Below, one piece after another: positions 3,457-61,500 of a stretch of DNA of 64,000 nt. Below the pieces are notes generated by a model. That model saw nothing but the letters and a program-made list of their open reading frames with translations, was not told the origin of the DNA and did not search any database. The stretch comes from Candidatus Rokuibacteriota bacterium. GTDB lineage: Bacteria > Methylomirabilota > Methylomirabilia > Rokubacteriales > CSP1-6. Made by a program: the position numbers and the translations under genes. The stretch spans positions 47,917-111,916 of the forward strand of contig QHSL01000060.1 in the NCBI GenBank assembly GCA_003220435.1, given 5' to 3'. Position 1 is the first letter of the stretch, and each line of letters begins with the position of its first letter.

Positions 3457-4737
3457 ATGAGAGTCGCGATCATCGGGGCGGGCCCGGCGGGATCGGCGCA
3501 GGGGCTCCTGCTCGCCCGAGCGGGCGCGGACGTGACGCTCTTCGACGACGGGCGGCGCCCGGAGCTGCTGGTCGGCGAGTCGCTGATCCCCGCCGTCATT
3601 CCGATCTTCAAGCGCCTCGGCATCGAGGACACCATGGCGACGTGCGGCCGGCTGAAGCCCGGCGTCTCGTTCGTGTGGTCGGAGTCGGAGCGCTTCAGCT
3701 TCACGTTCGCGCGGTTCGCGCCGGCCGTGGCCCCGTACGCCTACAACATCGCGCGCCCCCAGTTCGACGAGGCGGTGCGGGCGCGAGCGCTGGCCGCCGG
3801 CGTCCAGCACGTGATCGCGCGGGCGCGCCTCATGCCGGCGGGCACCGGATCGGCCGAGCTGGCGCTCGACGCCGAGACGCTCGCCGCCGCGCCGACGCTC
3901 GGAGGCCGTCAGCCCGATTTCATCGTCGACGCGACCGGGCGCGGCCGGCTCGCGGCCGGCGCGCTGAGGATTCCCGCGCGGGTCGGGCCACGCAATGACG
4001 TGGCGCACTTCGCCCACTTCGAGGGTTTCAAGTGGGACGACGTGCCCGGCCAGGTGCTCATCTCACGACTCAAGGCGGGATGGAGCTGGGGCATCCCCCT
4101 CAAGGAGCGTCTCTCGGTAGGCATCGTGATGGGCCGCGAGGACGCGGCCGGTCTCGGCGCCACGCCCGCGGAGCGTCTCGAGCGGGCGATCGCGATCGAC
4201 CCGTGGCTCACCTCGATGGTCGGCGGCGCCAGGCGAGTGACGTCGGTCGCGACCTACTCCAACTACCAGCTGATTTCCGAGCGAGGCTGCGGCCCGGGCT
4301 GGGTGACCATCGGCGACGCGTTCGGCTTCGTCGACCCCATGCTGTCGCCGGGCGTCTTCCTGGCGCTCCGCTCGGCGGAGCTGGTGGCCGAAGCGCTCGC
4401 GCCGTTCGTGCGCCGGCCGGCGACGCCCTCGCCTGACGAGCTCCACGTGGCGCTGCGCCCCTACGCGGCGACGCAGCAGCGCATGCTGACCGCGTGGCTC
4501 GACCTCGTCGCCCACTTCTACGACGGGCGCATGCTGGCGCTCATGCGGTCCGGGCGCAATTGGATCGACGAAGGGCCGAGCGCCTTCAAGAACGCGGCGC
4601 AGAACCACATCGAGCGCCACATCGCCCTACAGGCTTCCGGCGTCGGAACCACGTCTCGCTACAGCCGCGCCCTGCTCCGCGTGCTCGCGCGCTACGGCAT
4701 GCGCGGGGTCACGCCCGCGGAGATGGCCATACATTGA
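3457..4737 (+). CDS. Flavin-dependent halogenase (FAD-dependent, tryptophan-halogenase-like family).
   Basis: MRVAIIGAGPAGS is an N-terminal GxGxxG FAD motif. GESLIP is present. AGWSWGIPL matches the WxWxIP motif that distinguishes flavin halogenases from monooxygenases. The product is 426 aa. Confidence 0.8.
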   Translation: MRVAIIGAGPAGSAQGLLLARAGADVTLFDDGRRPELLVGESLIPAVIPIFKRLGIEDTMATCGRLKPGVSFVWSESERFSFTFARFAPAVAPYAYNIARPQFDEAVRARALAAGVQHVIARARLMPAGTGSAELALDAETLAAAPTLGGRQPDFIVDATGRGRLAAGALRIPARVGPRNDVAHFAHFEGFKWDDVPGQVLISRLKAGWSWGIPLKERLSVGIVMGREDAAGLGATPAERLERAIAIDPWLTSMVGGARRVTSVATYSNYQLISERGCGPGWVTIGDAFGFVDPMLSPGVFLALRSAELVAEALAPFVRRPATPSPDELHVALRPYAATQQRMLTAWLDLVAHFYDGRMLALMRSGRNWIDEGPSAFKNAAQNHIERHIALQASGVGTTSRYSRALLRVLARYGMRGVTPAEMAIH

Positions 4738-4744
4738 TTACATG

Positions 4745-4990
4745 GGGGGCCCCGACATGGCCCCCCAATCCCCCCAACCTTCGGAGCGTCCCGGCGTAGC
4801 CGTGACGCTCCTCTACCTCCCGCGGCAGTGTTGGGGCCCCGACATGGCCCCCCAATCCCCCCAACCTTCGGAGCGTCCCGGCGTAGCCGTGACGCTCCTC
4901 TACCTCCCACGGCGGTGTTGGGGCCCCGACATGGCCCCCCGGCGGCGGCAGGGGGCGCCGACATGGCCCCGGGCGGTCAGCACGCTGGCT
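4745..4990. repeat. Tandem direct repeat. An 87-bp unit occurs twice and is followed by a degenerate partial third copy.
   Basis: GACATGG recurs at 4754, 4841 and 4928, giving a period of 87. Copies 1 and 2 are almost identical. Each unit contains two GC-rich hairpins: GGGGCC-N7-GGCCCC and GGAGCGTC-N13-GACGCTCC. The array lies between the convergent halogenase and methyltransferase genes. Confidence 0.9.
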
Positions 4991-21852: not shown

Positions 21853-22314
21853 GGTCTCGTGCCATATTACGCGACCGGCGCGTCCCCAGCCCGCTTCCGG
21901 GAGGTTGGGGGGCCTGAAACCCCGGAGTTGTCCGGGCCGGGGCGCTGGTGCGCGTGGTGGCGTTCGGCTAGACTCCCCGGCAGCCGTCCCCAGCCGAGGT
22001 GCCCTTGCGGCTGATCGGACTCGCGGTCATTCTCGCTCTCTGGACATGATCGAAATGGGAAATGGTGCGCTATACAGATCCGTGCAACGCGACGACGGAA
22101 TGAGTAACAACGCCGCTAACGGCAAGGATCGCAAGACTGCCGGATCTCCGTATCTGGATCGCTGCTCCGCGCTAATGGACCGGGCGCGCTGCGTCACACG
22201 GATTATCTAGTTCCGTATACTTCTAGTTCGCCGCATTTGCGGTCTGTCCACGGCGATCGTCATCGGATTGGGTTATACCTGACCGTGCTGCTGAGTGCAG
22301 CCAAGGAGGCGCCG

Positions 22315-22485
22315 ATGTCGGCGGGCAACGCCAAACAGAAGGTCCTTGAGGTGATCGAGAAGCTTCCAGCGGATGCCACGCTGGAGGACGCGATCGAGCG
22401 CCAGGTACCGAGAACCTCCCTCGAAAAAGTAGACGTCACCCATTTCCCAGACGATGAGCGTCAGTGCCTGCAACCGGCGCAGTAG
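22315..22485 (+). CDS. Small hypothetical protein of 56 aa. It is possibly DUF2281-like and antitoxin-like. It sits in a lower-GC island.
   Basis: AAGGAGG lies 6 nt before the ATG. KVLEVIEKLPADATLEDAIERQ resembles small antitoxin-like proteins. The surrounding 21866-22800 region is visibly less GC-rich and contains only broken ORFs. Confidence 0.3.
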   Translation: MSAGNAKQKVLEVIEKLPADATLEDAIERQVPRTSLEKVDVTHFPDDERQCLQPAQ

Positions 22486-22799
22486 CGGTTCGACCGGCGG
22501 TCGTCGATGGAGATTGGGTATTCGTCTCGACCAGCGATCAGCAGCAGGCGCTCACCGAGATCTTCCTCGGCCGCGTGGGTGGAAGAAGAACTATGCTCGT
22601 GCAATCGGCGAGGTCTATGCAGTGAGACGCGCGAGCATCGAGCTGGACGCCACCGGCCGGCGGAGGCTGGGCCGAACAACGCGCTGGAGCCGACGGCCTG
22701 ACGGCCGCGGCTCAGCGCTGGCGTTCGGCGTTCAGCGGATCATCGTCAACGGATGGCACTTCGAGGGCCTGGCGGACCTGGGCCGACTCACCAACTAAA

Positions 22800-23108
22800 T
22801 TACACGACCGCGCCGCGAGGCCGGCGCGACGCCCGCGGCAGAGCCAGCTGAAGCTCGCGACAGCGCTTGCGGAGCGTGTTGCGGTTGAGCCCGAGCAGTC
22901 GCGCCGCGCGGAGCTGGTTGCCTCCGGTCAGCGACAGGACGTGTCCGAGCAGCGGGCGCTCGAGCAGCTCGAGCGCCTCACGATAGAGCCGACCCGGCTT
23001 CGCCGTCGAGAGTCGGTCGACGAGTTGCGGCACGGTCTCGGCCAACGCCCGCGCCACGCCGCGCAGCTCCGCCGTTCCCTCGCCCCGCCCATCCACCACA
23101 TCGACCAT
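22800..23108 (-). CDS. Fis-type helix-turn-helix DNA-binding protein. It is a small stand-alone NtrC-C-terminal-like regulator.
   Basis: The C-terminal HTH TGGNQLRAARLLGLNRNTLRKRC is the Fis/NtrC family signature. Confidence 0.6.
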   Translation of the reverse strand: MVDVVDGRGEGTAELRGVARALAETVPQLVDRLSTAKPGRLYREALELLERPLLGHVLSLTGGNQLRAARLLGLNRNTLRKRCRELQLALPRASRRPRGAVV

Positions 23109-23130
23109 CGCATCCCTCTCTTTTTATAGG

Positions 23131-23184
23131 CGCGCCTCGGCCGGCGGGGCCCCAGCCCCGCGACGGCCTGCGGCGCGCACCGCA
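23131..23184. repeat. Third, diverged copy of the palindromic element found twice at 59588-59713.
   Basis: GCGCCTCGGCCGGCGGGGCCCCAGCCCCGCGACGGCCTGCGGCGCGCAC matches the 59.6-kb copies except for C to G and G to C changes at two positions that pair in the predicted stem. Confidence 0.65.
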
Positions 23185-23199
23185 TGGATAACTCGTGGA

Positions 23200-26414
<3,215 letters not shown>

Positions 26415-51386: not shown

Positions 51387-54281
<2,895 letters not shown>

Positions 54282-54309
54282 GGCGCCCTATTATACGGCC
54301 CGCACTGCG

Positions 54310-56861: not shown

Positions 56862-57595
56862 GCAAGTACGGGCCGGCGCTGGTCAGCGTGGCGCTCTCGC
56901 TCGGCGCCATCGTGGGCTACTTCTCGCTGCTGCGCGTGCCCCTCATCCGGAATCACCCCCTGCTCTACATCGTCGCCTTCGCGCTCGCGGCGGCGATCGC
57001 GGCCGTCGCCGCGCTGCGGGCCCCCCGCTGGCCGAGCCTGACGGCGCTCGCGATCTCGCTGGCGCTCCTGATCCTCGGCAGCTACTTCAACTTCGTCATG
57101 GCGAAGATTCCGCAGAGCTTGATCGCGGCGCGCGTTGGCCAGCCGGCGCCGGACTTCACGCTGCCGGACGCCAAGGGCGCGCCCGTCACGCTCGCGTCGT
57201 TTCGCGGCCGCTCGCCGGTTGTGGTCGTCTTCTATCGCGGCTACTGGTGACCCTTCTGCGTGTCTGAGCTCCAAGGCCTTGGAGCCGTGCTCACGGAGCT
57301 GGGTGACGAGGGCGTGCAGATCCTGGCGATCAGTCCCGATTCGAACGAGCGGAGCCAGGAGCTCGCCGAGCGGCTGCGCGCCCGCTACCGCTTCCTCGCC
57401 GATCGCGACCTCGCGGTGACGAAGCGGTACGGCCTCCTCCACCCTCGCGGCGGCGAAAAGGGCCAGGACGTGCCGGTGCCGGCGACCGTCGTCCTCGACC
57501 GCGACGGGATCGTTCGGTGGCTCACGGTGGCCGACAACTACCAGGTGCGACCCGATCCGGCCGATGTCGCGCGTGTCGTGCGGGCGATCAAGTGA
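56858..57595 (+). CDS. Candidate selenoprotein: a membrane-anchored TlpA/ResA-like (AhpC/TSA-redoxin fold) thiol:disulfide oxidoreductase. The in-frame TGA at 57248-57250 sits in a W-U-PFC motif.
   Basis: ATG at 56858 (overlapping the upstream stop as ATGA) gives three TM helices, then QPAPDFTLPDAKGAPVTLASFRGRSPVVVVFYRGYW-[TGA]-PFCVSELQGLGAVLTELGDEGVQILAISPDS.... This is the TlpA/ResA WCxxC redoxin pattern with the first Cys replaced by TGA. The track splits it at the TGA into ORFs 56474..57250 and 57260..57595, which share a frame. A palindromic hairpin GCUCCAAGGCCUUGGAGC starts 17 nt after the UGA. Confidence 0.6.
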
Positions 57596-57688
57596 TGGTC
57601 GTGCGAGCCGAGGCGGTGCCTCCGCCGAGGCGAGTCTAGTGATGGTCGTGCGAGCCGAGGCGGTGCCTCCGCCGAGGCGAGTCTATCA
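57591..57688. repeat. A 49-bp unit duplicated in direct tandem (GTGATGGTCGTGCGAGCCGAGGCGGTGCCTCCGCCGAGGCGAGTCTA).
   Basis: The copies at 57591-57639 and 57640-57688 are identical except for the last 2 nt. Each holds a GGCGG-N5-CCGCC hairpin. Copy 1 overlaps the stop codon of the preceding gene and copy 2 ends at the YbaK start. Confidence 0.85.
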
Positions 57689-58177: not shown

Positions 58178-59574
58178 CCATCTTCAGCTCGGTCATCTCC
58201 TCGATCGCGTAGGCCGGTCCCTCTTTCCCAAAGCCCGACTCCTTGAGGCCGCCGTACGGCATGCGGTCGGCACGCCACTGCGGGCCCCAGTTCACGTGCA
58301 GGTTCCCCGCCTGTACCTCGCGCGCGAACTTCCACGCCCACTCGAGGTTCTCGGTGAAGATCCCGGCGGCGAGCCCGTAGTTCGTGTCGTTGGCGAGCGC
58401 TATCGCCTCGTCGATGTCGGTGAACGGCGAGACGGCGACGGCCGGGCCGAACAGCTCGTCGCAGGAGATCCGCATGTCCGGCTTGACGTCCGCCACGATC
58501 GTCGGCGCGTACATCGCTCCCTGGCGCGTGCCGCCGGTGACGACTCGCGCGCCGCTCGCCACCGCCTCGCGCACCCACTCGTCCACCCGGGCCGCCTCCT
58601 TCTCGCGGATCATCGGACCGATCTGGACGCTCGCGTCGAGCTGATTGCCGACCTTGAGCGCGCTGACCTTGGGCCGCAGCGCATCGAGGAAATCGTCGTA
58701 GACGCGCGACGCGGTCAGGACACGCTGAGTGGAGATGCAGACCTGCCCCGCGTTCGCGTAGCCGGTCGACGCGACCGCGGCGGCGACCTTGTCCAGGTCG
58801 GCGTCCGGCATCACGATCACCGGCGCGTTCGAGCCGAGCTCCATCGTCACCCGCTTGATGCCGGCCGTCTTGCAGATGTGCTCGCCGACGTCGCGGCTGC
58901 CGGTGAAGGTGATCTTGCGCACGCGGCGATCGGCCACCAGTGCGTCGCCGATGTCCCCGCCCGACCCGGTGAGGATGTTGATGCCCTCCGGGGGCAGGCC
59001 GGCCTCGAGCAGGATCTCGGTCAACCGGATCGCCGACAGCGGCGTGTCGGTCGCCGGCTTCACGATCACGGCGTTGCCGCCGGCGATCGCGGGGCCGACC
59101 TTGTGGCAGACCAGGTTCAGCGGGAAGTTGAAGGGGCTGATCGCGACCACGACGCCGCACGGCACGCGGATCGTCACGCCGAACTTTCCCTTGCCGTGCG
59201 ACGCCGCGTCGAGCGCGACGGTCTCGCCGTGGACGCGCTTGGCCTCCTCGGCCGACTCCATGATCGTGTCGACGGCCCGCAGCGCCTCGGCGCGTCCCTC
59301 GGCGACGATCTTCCCCTCCTCCCTCGAGATCAGCGTGCCGAGCTCCTCGACGCGCGCGGCCAGCAGCTCGGCGGCGCGATGGAGGATCTTCCAGCGCTCG
59401 TGGCTCGTCAGCTTCGCCATCGCTCGAGCGCCCCGCTCGGCCGACTGGAGCGCGCGCTCGATGTCACCGCGATCGGCGCGCGGCACGGTGTCGATGACGC
59501 TGTTGTCGTACGAATTGCGCACCTCGATCTTCTGGTCCTTGTCGATCCACTGGCCGGCCACGTACATTTTCATT
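58155..59574 (-). CDS. NAD(P)+-dependent aldehyde dehydrogenase.
   Basis: MKMYVAGQWI... contains TFTGS and GSRDVG. ELGSNAP holds the catalytic Glu and VCISTQRV the catalytic Cys. EGPAYAIEE is the ALDH C-terminal motif. The product is 473 aa. The 625-aa track ORF extends spuriously upstream. Confidence 0.9.
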
Positions 59575-59587
59575 ACGAGTCCCCCTT

Positions 59588-59713
59588 GAATCGTATCCGC
59601 GCCTCCGCCGGCGGGGCCCCAGCCCCGCGACGGCGTGCGGCGCGCACTACGATTCGTATCCGCGCCTCCGCCGGCGGGGCCCCAGCCCCGCGACGGCGTG
59701 CGGCGCGCACTAC
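59588..59713. repeat. A 63-bp unit repeated twice in tandem, containing a GC-rich palindrome (REP-like). It lies in the divergent aldehyde-dehydrogenase / peptidase promoter region.
   Basis: GA(A/T)TCGTATCCGCGCCTCCGCCGGCGGGGCCCCAGCCCCGCGACGGCGTGCGGCGCGCACTAC occurs at 59588-59650 and 59651-59713. The outer stem is GCGCGCC/GGCGCGC and the inner stem is CGGGGC/GCCCCG. A diverged third copy lies at 23131-23184. Confidence 0.85.
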
Positions 59714-59757
59714 GATGGGGAGCGTACGCCTCACAACAGCTGGAGTAAAATACGAGT

Positions 59758-61500
59758 GTGACTCGCCGCCTGGTTGTCCCCTTTCTGTTGCTCGCGTCCC
59801 TGCTGGTCGCCGCCGCCGGGGCCTTCGCGCGAGCCGCCGTCGTCCCGCCCGACGCCGCGCGGCTGGGAGCCGACGTGGAGACGCTGGCCGCTCCGGATAT
59901 GGAGGGCCGCCGCTCGGGCACCGCCGGAGGCGATCGCGCGGCGCGCCAGATCGCCGACTGGCTCGCGGCCGCCGGCCTCCGTCCCGGAGGCGACGCGGGC
60001 TCGTATCTCCAGACGTTCGTCCTCGAGACCACGACGCGCCCGGCCGCCTCGAGCAGCCTGGAGCTCGTCGCGCCGTCGTCGCGGCGCTTCGAGTCCCTCC
60101 GCGACTGGAGCCCGCACGGTGGGTCGCTCGCCGGCGAGGCCAGCGGAGAGGTTGTCTTCGTCGGCTACGGCGCGGACCTGCCCGACGCCGGATACGACGA
60201 CTACGCGTCCGTCGACGTTCGCGGCAAGATCGCGCTCGCATTGGAGGGCGCGCCGGCACACCTCGGCGGAACACACGTGAGCCGCCTCGACAAGCTGATC
60301 GCCGCGAAGCGGCGCGGCGCCGCCGCGCTGCTACTCGCCGGCGACGAGCTGCCGGCGCCGGCCGCGACCGCGGCGCGGGTCGGCCTCGTGTCGGCAGCGC
60401 TGACGCGCGAGTCGGCCGACGTCCTGCTGGCTCCGGCCGGCCGAACGACGGCCGGAGTCGCGACGAGTCTGGTCGCGGCGCGCGCGCCGACGTCGTTCGC
60501 GACGGGCGCGCGCGTCAAGGTCCGGGTCGAGATGGTCGCGGACGAGATCCGGGCGGCGAACGTCGTGGGTGTCCTGCCCGGCACCGACCCGGTGCGCGCG
60601 GGCGAGGCCATCGTGATCGGCGCGCACTACGATCATCTCGGTCGCGCCAACGGTATCGTCTACCCCGGTGCCGATGACAATGCGTCCGGCAGCGCGGTCG
60701 TCCTCGGCCTGGCGCGCGCGTTCGGGGCGGCGGGCGGCGCCGAGCGAACGCTTGTCTTCGCGCTGTTCGGGGCCGAGGAGCTCGGGCTCCTGGGCTCGCG
60801 CCATTACGTGAGCCATCCGCTGATCCCTCTCACGAAGACCGTCGCGATGCTCAACTTCGACATGGTCGGAAGGATGCAGGGCACCCGCCTCACCATCGCC
60901 GGCGGCGACAGCGGCAGCGGACTTCGCGCGAAGGCGGAAGAGGCGGCCCAGAAGGAAAGCGTGACGGCCGAGCTCCTCGGCAATCCCCACGGCCCGTCCG
61001 ATCACAGCCAGTTCTATAGCGCGGGCGTTCCGGTGCTGTTCTTCTACACCGGCGGTCACGGTGACTATCACCGCCCGACCGACACCGCGGACAAGATCAA
61101 CGCGGCGGGCATGGCGCGCCTGAGCGCCGTCGCGGTGCGGATCATCGAGAACCTCGCAGGGGACGGCGCCCGGCCCGCCTACGCTCAGGTCCCGCGGCCG
61201 GCCGGGCGCCGGACGCCGTCCGGCGCCGCCCCCGGGGGCGCGTTCCTCGGCATCTCCGCGCCGCCCAGCGGCAACGACGGTCTTCGGGTGGCCAGTGTCG
61301 TCCCGGGGACAGCGGCCGCGCAGGCAGGCTTACGTGAGGGCGACGTGATCGTCCGCATCGCCGGGACGTTGATCGCCGGCCTGGAGGACGTGAGAACGCT
61401 GCTCCGTGACCGCCGGCCCGGCGACACCGTGTCGGTGCTCTACCTCAGGGACGGCGAGGCGCACGCCACGACAGCGACGCTCGGGGTCCGCGCGGACTAG
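59758..61500 (+). CDS. Secreted M28-family metallopeptidase with a PA-domain insert and a C-terminal PDZ domain.
   Basis: There is a signal peptide. HYDHLG and DDNASGSAVVLGLA are M28 zinc-ligand motifs, and FGAEELGLLGS and NFDMVG are present. The C-terminal PDZ reads GLRVASVVPGTAAAQAGLREGDVIVRIAG. The start is GTG at 59758. Confidence 0.8.
   Translation: MTRRLVVPFLLLASLLVAAAGAFARAAVVPPDAARLGADVETLAAPDMEGRRSGTAGGDRAARQIADWLAAAGLRPGGDAGSYLQTFVLETTTRPAASSSLELVAPSSRRFESLRDWSPHGGSLAGEASGEVVFVGYGADLPDAGYDDYASVDVRGKIALALEGAPAHLGGTHVSRLDKLIAAKRRGAAALLLAGDELPAPAATAARVGLVSAALTRESADVLLAPAGRTTAGVATSLVAARAPTSFATGARVKVRVEMVADEIRAANVVGVLPGTDPVRAGEAIVIGAHYDHLGRANGIVYPGADDNASGSAVVLGLARAFGAAGGAERTLVFALFGAEELGLLGSRHYVSHPLIPLTKTVAMLNFDMVGRMQGTRLTIAGGDSGSGLRAKAEEAAQKESVTAELLGNPHGPSDHSQFYSAGVPVLFFYTGGHGDYHRPTDTADKINAAGMARLSAVAVRIIENLAGDGARPAYAQVPRPAGRRTPSGAAPGGAFLGISAPPSGNDGLRVASVVPGTAAAQAGLREGDVIVRIAGTLIAGLEDVRTLLRDRRPGDTVSVLYLRDGEAHATTATLGVRAD

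Follow-up and report, generated by a model that had tools for sequence, protein, structure and literature searches.

The 64-kb stretch of Candidatus Rokuibacteriota contig QHSL01000060.1 analysed here (the window; 69.5% GC, with all window coordinates given as positions in that stretch) carries three copies of a short GC-rich palindrome belonging to a family of mobile, non-coding hairpin elements, each roughly 65-75 nt long, dispersed in the genomes of Rokubacteria (Methylomirabilota), which are abundant uncultured soil bacteria with large genomes. The family is specific to Rokubacteria, dispersed and mobile, conserves its structure, mostly shares the polarity of the genes beside it and lies next to Shine-Dalgarno (SD) sequences. 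In general terms it is clearly a small bacterial hairpin repeat, and it is apparently undescribed, as the literature consulted ties Rokubacteria to palindromic repeats solely in CRISPR-type mentions and yielded no description of a hairpin family. The element is a mobile repeat, not a dedicated regulatory site, and we hold with moderate confidence that it is a hairpin comparable to repetitive extragenic palindromes (REP) and miniature inverted-repeat transposable elements (MITE), probably co-transcribed as a leader or intercistronic structure.

Tandem Repeats Finder delimits an array at 59591-59716 with a period of 63, 2.0 copies, 100% identity and a score of 252, so the tandem duplicate of a 63-bp palindrome that an earlier note on this DNA had placed at 59588-59713 is real and represents the same array in shifted phase. 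The core of a third copy, at 23131-23180, can be aligned with the tandem unit over 50 nt with exactly two differences, and a 28-mer common to all copies has three occurrences in the window, compared with an expectation of 0 from 100 shuffles. The compensatory swap attributed to the third copy was confirmed: the two differing positions pair together in the minimum-free-energy fold of both strands, as G-C in the 23-kb copy, which is the family consensus, and as C-G in the tandem copies. Hairpin energies of the window copies range from -42.7 to -44.6 kcal/mol on either strand; the fold z-scores are -3.8 to -4.0 in the tandem unit and -2.3 to -2.8 in the third copy. Scanning the window with a covariance model of the family disclosed no additional strong copy. 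The copies and the SD sequences they adjoin are as follows.

59591..59653, minus strand: tandem unit nearest the aldehyde dehydrogenase gene, a full 63-nt element (Tandem Repeats Finder, fold, and covariance model hit 59585-59662 with 80.5 bits)
59654..59716, minus strand: second tandem unit, 100% identical (Tandem Repeats Finder, covariance model); missing from contig L156
23118..23195, minus strand: third copy, core 23131-23180 (covariance model, 89.4 bits)
59580..59587, minus strand: Shine-Dalgarno AAGGGGGA of the aldehyde dehydrogenase gene, 4 nt from the element, with the ATG at 59573 (sequence and gene call)
23113..23120, minus strand: Shine-Dalgarno GAGAGGGA of the Fis-type helix-turn-helix (HTH) gene, directly after the element's A/U-rich head UAUAAAAA, with the ATG at 23108

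The tandem pair lies within a 184-nt divergent spacer. It is flanked by the aldehyde dehydrogenase gene (aldH) on the minus strand, which starts with the ATG at 59573 and matches Pfam Aldedh at E = 3.9e-158, and by an M28/PDZ peptidase gene on the plus strand, which starts with GTG at 59758. The third copy occupies the gap from the stop codon of a porin-like gene (end 23200) to the SD of the Fis-type gene, an identical protein of which is annotated HTH_8; both of these genes are on the minus strand.

Distribution, architecture and predicted fold

Searched for as its exact 22-nt core, GGCGGGGCCCCAGCCCCGCGAC, in one genome per prokaryotic species, the family was found in at least 113 genome stretches, nearly all of them from metagenome-assembled genomes (MAGs) of Candidatus Rokubacteria, Rokuibacteriota or Methylomirabilota, and several of the matched stretches hold 2-3 copies at 59-66 bp spacing. 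Among the matches listed, 133-135 copies were extracted, and the structural counts refer to 134 distinct copies. The core had zero matches in viral contigs. Rfam returned 0 hits in the window at gathering thresholds, and at an E-value threshold it gave sub-threshold noise alone on the element (at most 17.5 bits).

The anatomy of the element was derived from a sense-oriented alignment (A2) and its column counts. On the sense strand, the 5' end consists of a tail, GGNNG, and a 5' box, UGCG(C/A)GCC (P1), followed by a conserved asymmetric internal loop between P1 and P2 (G-C-A versus G-A, with one C-G pair). The inner part comprises helix P2 (5 bp), a UC bulge, helix P3 (GCGGGGC/GCCCCGC) and the loop UGGG, while the 3' part is formed by the box GAGGCG(C/A)GCC and an A/U-rich head, CUAURAA. 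The full element, at about 65-75 nt, thereby exceeds the 50-nt core of the earlier note. The sense strand of unit 59591..59653 reads TCGTAG-UGCGCGCC-GCA-CGCC-GUC-GCGGGGC-UGGG-GCCCCGC-C-GGCG-GAGGCGCGG-AUACGAU. A CCCCGG...CCGG subfamily was additionally observed in the DASYUM01 MAG loci L006, L030, L055, L070, L072 and L102, in which the internal loop is closed to a perfect helix with one bulged base; it sits inside a longer composite repeat with a second recurring motif, GCGGCATACGCCTCGGCG.

This structure is conserved across the family. Over the 134 copies, 93.7% of the cells in the named structure are paired on the sense strand, and pairing falls to 35-46% when the 3' partner is slid as a control. 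Double, compensatory changes occur in 9 of the 12 variable stem pairs, and 70 cells are changed on both sides, compared with 17±3 in column shuffles; pair 34-60 is C-G in 78 copies, A-U in 32, U-A in 6 and G-C in 4. An independent RNAalifold prediction contains P2, P3 and the inner portion of P1. Among copies found by the covariance model that lack the exact 22-mer, a subfamily with P3 CGGGGGC/GCCCCCG represents a double compensatory swap in an otherwise fixed helix, and half-changed intermediates of the pair that is swapped between the window copies are present in L103 and L111. Selection on structure, as the earlier note had proposed, is therefore supported at the family level by the 70 double-change cells and the nine pairs.

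The strand on which the hairpin folds is marked by its imperfect pairs. Non-Watson-Crick cells on the plus strand are A.C in 72 cases versus G.T in 15, and these A.C cells become U.G wobbles on the complement. Furthermore, 36 copies have T in both boxes (GCTCGCC ... GGCTCGC), which the plus strand reads as adjacent T.C/C.T mismatches and the complement as a stable tandem 5'-GA-3'/3'-AG-5' motif. Because the wobble pairs and the tandem G.A motif fall on the gene-sense strand, they show the predicted folding strand to be the sense strand of the flanking genes, which is the minus strand in the window. In agreement with this assignment, the sense RNA is the more stable in 113 of 134 copies (-37.3 versus -35.1 kcal/mol), DNA-parameter folding favours the sense strand in 120 of 134, and with the covariance model the window copies reach 80-89 bits when read on the minus strand, compared with 14-19 bits for the plus strand. 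The family is an unusually clear case of wobble-pair and G.A asymmetry revealing a folding strand.

Position relative to genes

The copies form 122 arrays (107 single, 14 double and 1 triple), and all 15 multi-copy arrays are head-to-tail. In 83 of about 118 arrays (about 70%) the 3' (head) end faces the start of a sense-strand gene, at a distance of 0-32 nt in 58 of the 83 and with a mode of 19. The sequence 3' of the 3' box follows the pattern AURAA, 1-4 nt, GGAGG, 5-9 nt, AUG, with the SD at +8 to +13. Within co-directional regions, sense and antisense orientations number 54:19 (73 cases, p = 5e-5). In the 21 divergent regions, the element abuts the SD of its sense gene, at 17-23 nt in 14 cases, and the other gene lies 16-450 nt off, the sense gene being the nearer in 17 of the 21. 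Co-directional, divergent and convergent regions account for 73, 21 and 8 cases, against a background of 565, 102 and 99, with convergent regions mildly depleted. The location 5' of genes described for the window copies thus extends to a family-wide bias, and neither outcome named in the earlier note as refuting its reading is seen, since the substitutions are not random and the placement is not indiscriminate. The 3' box with its head was also tried as an independent pre-gene motif and rejected, its solo occurrences being coding-sequence noise or remnants.

A sense-strand stop codon precedes 66 arrays, in about 43 of them within -2 to 22 nt. With its very stable hairpin (about -37 kcal/mol) lying 0-8 nt past stop codons in some 40 cases and oriented along transcription, the element could act as a factor-independent terminator or attenuator of the high-GC 'I-shaped' type, which has no U-tract, partial termination after the upstream gene setting the expression ratio within an operon. 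We consider this very unlikely: no T/U run follows the hairpin on either strand, where the sequence is CUAURAA (sense) or CACYRCC (antisense), and a terminator scan was blank at both window elements. The 21 divergent arrays have no upstream gene to terminate and lie close to a downstream SD, only 8 arrays are convergent, and termination is difficult to reconcile with tandem arrays and with the fusions to coding regions in L069 and L113. A sigma-70 promoter scan at both window sites found nothing on the elements. The TATAAA/TATGAA of the head was considered as a -10 box and dropped, having no -35, missing the final T and lying too near the SD.

Conserved sequence and structure immediately 5' of genes, together with a conserved internal loop and a UGGG loop that could contact a protein, might suggest that one DNA- or RNA-binding regulator acts through the element as a common operator or riboregulatory leader. 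This reading is highly improbable. The 59 genes directly downstream of SD-adjacent copies represent 93 Pfam families with at most 3 genes each, and include thiamine pyrophosphate (TPP) enzymes, ABC components, rpoC, cytochrome oxidase and transaldolase; because these genes are functionally unrelated, they do not constitute a regulon. In addition, presence of the element varies at the same gene between genomes that are 95-99.9% identical, its copy number varies, and antisense copies and copies beside gene ends exist. The operator or gene-specific leader that had been suggested for the window copies is accordingly a misfit for the family as a whole.

The 3' end of the element (GAGG-N7-AUG) itself resembles a ribosome-binding site, and in L010, L069, L106 and L113 the gene downstream is called as starting at the AUG of the head. 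In L113 (3341-3412), the element gives an upstream CoA-binding protein its last 19 residues and stop, with the C-terminus EVRAAGRRGAGAPPSEASL*, and in L069 (3106-3180) it forms the N-terminus MNEVVRAAGRRGAGAPPA of a DCC/DUF393-like protein. Both fusions are read in the same frame, the head supplying ATG or TGA.

These fusions bear on a further alternative, that the element is a translated spacer like MIRU, with a mini open reading frame (mini-ORF) running from GUG through VRAAGRRGAGAPPAEARL to a UGA in the head, overlapping its neighbours and coupling their translation. The frame is the one used in both fusions, the GUG at the 5' box is about 75-80% conserved, an in-frame stop lies in the head of 47 of 134 copies, and the 63-nt window unit equals 21 codons. 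Against this, array periods of 59-66 nt are not multiples of 3, the in-frame stop is missing from 65% of copies, amino acids change freely at the covarying positions, and the start codon is buried in helix P1 with no SD. All three sense frames are open, as expected for DNA of 70% GC, and we regard a mini-ORF as the least probable of the explanations weighed here. The terminator, operator or regulon, and mini-ORF readings each fail specific tests.

Mobility, spread and possible roles

Filled and empty sites were compared in several loci that retain synteny with the window at about 70-85% identity. L031 lacks an element at the Fis site, and the window is empty at sites that are filled in L065, L069 (two copies), L044 and L066; further filled/empty pairs are L010/L027, L071/L038 and L097/L008. 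At L012:4272-4412 an element of the P3 CGGGGGC/GCCCCCG subfamily is nested in the loop region of a second one. Four independent assemblies carry an identical copy at the Fis site. Despite its conserved structure and ordered placement, the element has the behaviour of a selfish repeat: orthologous sites are filled in some genomes and empty in others, and one copy is nested.

A metagenome scan with aldehyde dehydrogenase supplied 80 orthologous loci for the aldH site. The element is absent there from L115, which is 95% identical in aldH with the same synteny, and from L116-L120 (about 88%); the empty site reads ...CTCTCCA|GCACGGGAGGAGTCGTAATG, and what the window lineage has gained is exactly the 63-nt unit, positioned 4-5 nt 5' of the SD. 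Contig L156, 99.6-99.9% identical to the window, has a single copy with the same C-G pair. By this comparison, the aldH copy was inserted following the split from the 95%-identical relative and was duplicated afterwards, and the duplication is polymorphic at 99.9% identity unless the assembly has collapsed an array. One copy each is present at the same aldH spot in L121, L122 and L054 (about 85%), so that the element either entered this SD-adjacent spot twice or was lost precisely on several occasions. Between the window and L054 this site differs by two compensatory double substitutions and zero unpaired changes. In-situ compensatory evolution at the aldH site was considered for this pair and withdrawn, as intermediate relatives lack the element. 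Since the aldH copy is recent and absent from the 95%-identical relative, the swap between the window copies cannot be read as in-situ evolution either.

In other Rokubacteria lineages (L123-L133, L138 and L141), unrelated tandem repeat families occur between the upstream stop codon and the SD of aldH, with units of about 77 nt in 2-4 copies and, in another family, about 67 nt in 3-4 copies. Repeats in general seem to land or be amplified in the stop-to-SD gap upstream of aldH. Two other differences from syntenic loci were observed around the Fis site. A stretch of about 900 bp (21865-22800) with small plus-strand open reading frames (22237-22485 and 22454-22798), between MeaB-like and Fis-type genes, is missing from L031, where a tandem pair of the hairpin element stands instead, and the amtB-glnK-porin block (23200-26390) is missing from this neighbourhood in L066.

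Mobility and recent insertion are what the main rival explanation also predicts, in which the repeat is selfish purely at the DNA level, its hairpin serving as the single-stranded substrate of a strand-specific transposase (HUH/RAYT-like or other) and having no RNA role. Structure and sequence would then be kept only for mobilisation, and polarity would arise from the exposed non-template strand or from one replication strand. The lack of a clear target-site duplication is as in the 'peel and paste' of IS200/IS605- or REP-type elements, and the extreme cross-species conservation of P3, loop and bulge suggests a sequence-specific protein. DNA hairpins tolerate G.T and G.A, and DNA-parameter folding prefers the sense strand in the 120 of 134 copies given above; as these mismatches are tolerated in DNA, the strand asymmetry does not separate an RNA from a single-stranded DNA reading. 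On the other side, tblastn with E. coli RayT against the window and the 113 loci (870 kb) gave zero hits and found no RAYT-like open reading frame, a weak test confined to these loci, and no gene is bracketed by inverted copies, the interiors in L030 and L107 being a permease and an acyl-CoA dehydrogenase. Within the single 64-kb window, the canonical copies (minus strand) and a 47-bp relative (plus strand) are oppositely oriented, each along its local genes, which favours a link to transcription. The 74% co-orientation with genes probably exceeds the usual gene bias of replication strands, and the tight SD-adjacent placement in long divergent regions is left unexplained by selfish DNA itself. 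A purely selfish repeat is a possible but less likely explanation.

Under the co-transcribed mobile hairpin that we favour, the element would be transcribed with its flanking gene or genes, and its hairpin (about -37 kcal/mol) and A/U-rich head would provide a neutral-to-useful leader or intercistronic module. The hairpin may insulate the SD from upstream sequence and may impede exonucleases and the entry of 5'-end-dependent RNase, and the base of the helix could bring an upstream stop codon beside the downstream SD, so that translational coupling would outlast the insertion. We propose that sense-oriented, SD-adjacent copies persist because of such a leader, insulator or coupling role.

Several points weigh against this account. 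Genes were assigned by a home-made caller based on codon usage and third-position GC (GC3), which reproduces the window genes; region-type usage is near background, and the 19 antisense copies in co-directional regions are genuine, with a tail that also abuts an SD. Because antisense copies also abut an SD, placement partly reflects where insertion is tolerated in an 88%-coding genome. The copies of the family are phylogenetically non-independent, and P3 was held constant by the search pattern. Family covariation can arise without host benefit if only fold-competent copies propagate, and could thus reflect selection for mobilisation competence, not host function; G.T and G.A are also the best-tolerated mismatches in single-stranded DNA. 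Target-site duplications in the filled/empty pairs are inconsistent (candidates GAG, GATGA, CA or none), and no mobilising enzyme or cognate insertion sequence (IS) was found in the loci examined.

A stronger version of the leader account would make the element a phylum-wide 'portable leader', a mobile RNA module directed to ribosome-binding sites by active targeting, possibly via its RBS-like (ribosome-binding-site-like) 3' end, which in several copies doubles as SD and start codon for the gene downstream, each insertion installing a 5' stabilising hairpin and an A/U-rich enhancer beside an SD. We consider this improbable. No common target motif was found at the compared sites, and guidance of insertion by the RBS-likeness of the 3' end is speculation. 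If true, it would describe a domesticated mobile element tuning the translation or mRNA stability of hundreds of unrelated genes, with an insertion mechanism unlike that of REP/RAYT or IS-derived MITEs. If the SD-adjacent polarity is targeted, it would point to an insertion mechanism not yet described for bacterial mini-repeats.

The family has practical consequences as well. Such hairpin repeats affect assembly through collapsed arrays, strain typing through variable copy number, and gene calling through spurious open reading frames and through proteins extended at the N- or C-terminus, of which L069 and L113 are examples. With more than 130 copies and filled and empty sites, the family offers a natural data set on how stable hairpins are tolerated or exploited beside ribosome-binding sites.

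Relatives, remnants and known repeat classes

Two further features of the window resemble the family in their termini.

57583..57685, plus strand: 47-bp unit in 2.2 tandem copies (Tandem Repeats Finder; best non-family covariance model hit, 19.7 bits)
54282..54309, minus strand: possible remnant, CGCAGUGCGGGCCGUAUAAU..., with tail, one box and head, the hairpin missing (pairwise alignment)

The 47-bp relative has the tail, boxes and head of the family (UGGUCG-UGCGAGCC ... GAGGCGAGUC-UA) around a short, different inner hairpin. It spans the interval from the stop codon of a thioredoxin-like gene (TGA 57593-57595, inside the repeat) to the ATG of a YbaK-like gene (57689), in sense to both, and its ortholog in L054 (5001-5077) is a near-canonical full element. 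Other inner-hairpin variants were found in L051, L025 and L088 by a loose search between the conserved boxes that otherwise returned mostly noise. The termini are the constant part of a superfamily. At the second feature, the spacer 54282-54309 from a stop codon to the uvrA start reads CGCAGTGCGGGCCGTATAAT, and its ortholog in L044 holds two full copies; a single box and head are also kept at the 'empty' sites of L069 and L008. We infer that such remnants may derive from deletion of the hairpin between the direct GCG(A/C)GCC boxes.

Among known repeats, the Correia/NEMIS elements of Neisseria, enterobacterial ERIC/IRU and pneumococcal BOX/RUP are non-autonomous, dispersed and often located in 5' untranslated regions or between cistrons, where they form RNA hairpins with orientation-dependent effects on mRNA processing or stability and occupy filled and empty sites between strains. 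The Rokubacteria family shares their dispersal, hairpin formation and filled/empty sites, whereas it has no sequence similarity to them, no demonstrable TA or other fixed target duplication and no related IS seen in the loci. Compared with Correia and ERIC, the element is much smaller, and its core is conserved across many species of a phylum. As for MITE features, the outer helix P1 could serve as inverted repeats, and the duplications at filled/empty sites are inconsistent.

MIRU are direct head-to-tail repeats of about 50-100 bp between operon cistrons, with gene polarity, overlapping start and stop codons and strain-variable copy number; they lack a strong palindrome and are regarded as translated. 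The family resembles them in its head-to-tail copies between cistrons, gene polarity, codon overlap with neighbours and variable copy number. It differs in that only about 12% of loci are arrays, that the array periods (59-66 nt) are not multiples of 3 and that its signal is base-pair covariation; with an in-frame stop in 35% of copies and structural covariation, the in-frame translation expected of MIRU is not supported. Integron attC sites are likewise not matched, as the consensus contains neither GTTRRRY nor RYYYAAC and each locus has 1-3 copies with no cassette arrays.

The label 'REP-like' given in the earlier note is fair. Like the GTAG- and CGTC-tagged REP, BIME and REPIN, the elements are short GC-rich imperfect palindromes with many intergenic copies and are plausibly transcribed (Di Nocera et al. 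2013, PMC3733652). As with REP, whose termini sometimes give flanking reading frames their TAG stop codons, occasional in-frame gene fusion occurs, and as in CGTC REP, a class also without a known transposase, a CGTC tetranucleotide lies directly 5' of the inner stem. REPs lie near the 3' ends of open reading frames, in co-directional and convergent regions, at variable distance to the next frame and mostly as inverted dimers (PMC3733652). The Rokubacteria element, in contrast, is longer, with a 50-nt three-helix hairpin plus tail and head, forms head-to-tail arrays rather than inverted dimers, and is tightly coupled to the downstream SD (mode 19 nt) with few convergent sites. The tag of the RAYT-associated GTAG superfamily, an unpaired GTAG or GTGG at one end of the palindrome, is not conserved, the tail being G-G-N-N-G with its middle two positions variable and GTAG present in about 18 of 134 copies (about 13%). 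CGTC REPs have a terminal unpaired CGTC, an 8-9 bp stem starting with A-T, a loop of 4-5 nt and a CCA tail (PMC3733652), whereas here the CG of CGTC is paired in P2, P3 has 7 bp, all G/C, the loop has 4 nt and there is no CCA tail.

Two other repeats in the window were observed. At 4746-4940, an 87-bp unit is repeated 2.2 times in tandem (98% identity) with GGGGCCCCGACATGGCCCC hairpins, in a convergent spacer between genes that end at 4737 (plus strand) and 4977 (minus strand); in the syntenic locus L075 this spot is occupied by a canonical member of the hairpin family instead. Within uvrA (51387-54281), a 15-bp unit is repeated 3.9 times in frame at 53446-53504 (minus strand) and encodes (K/N)(D/H)PAT pentapeptides in UvrA, a gene which, with other repair genes, often contains repeats (Di Nocera et al., PMC3733652).

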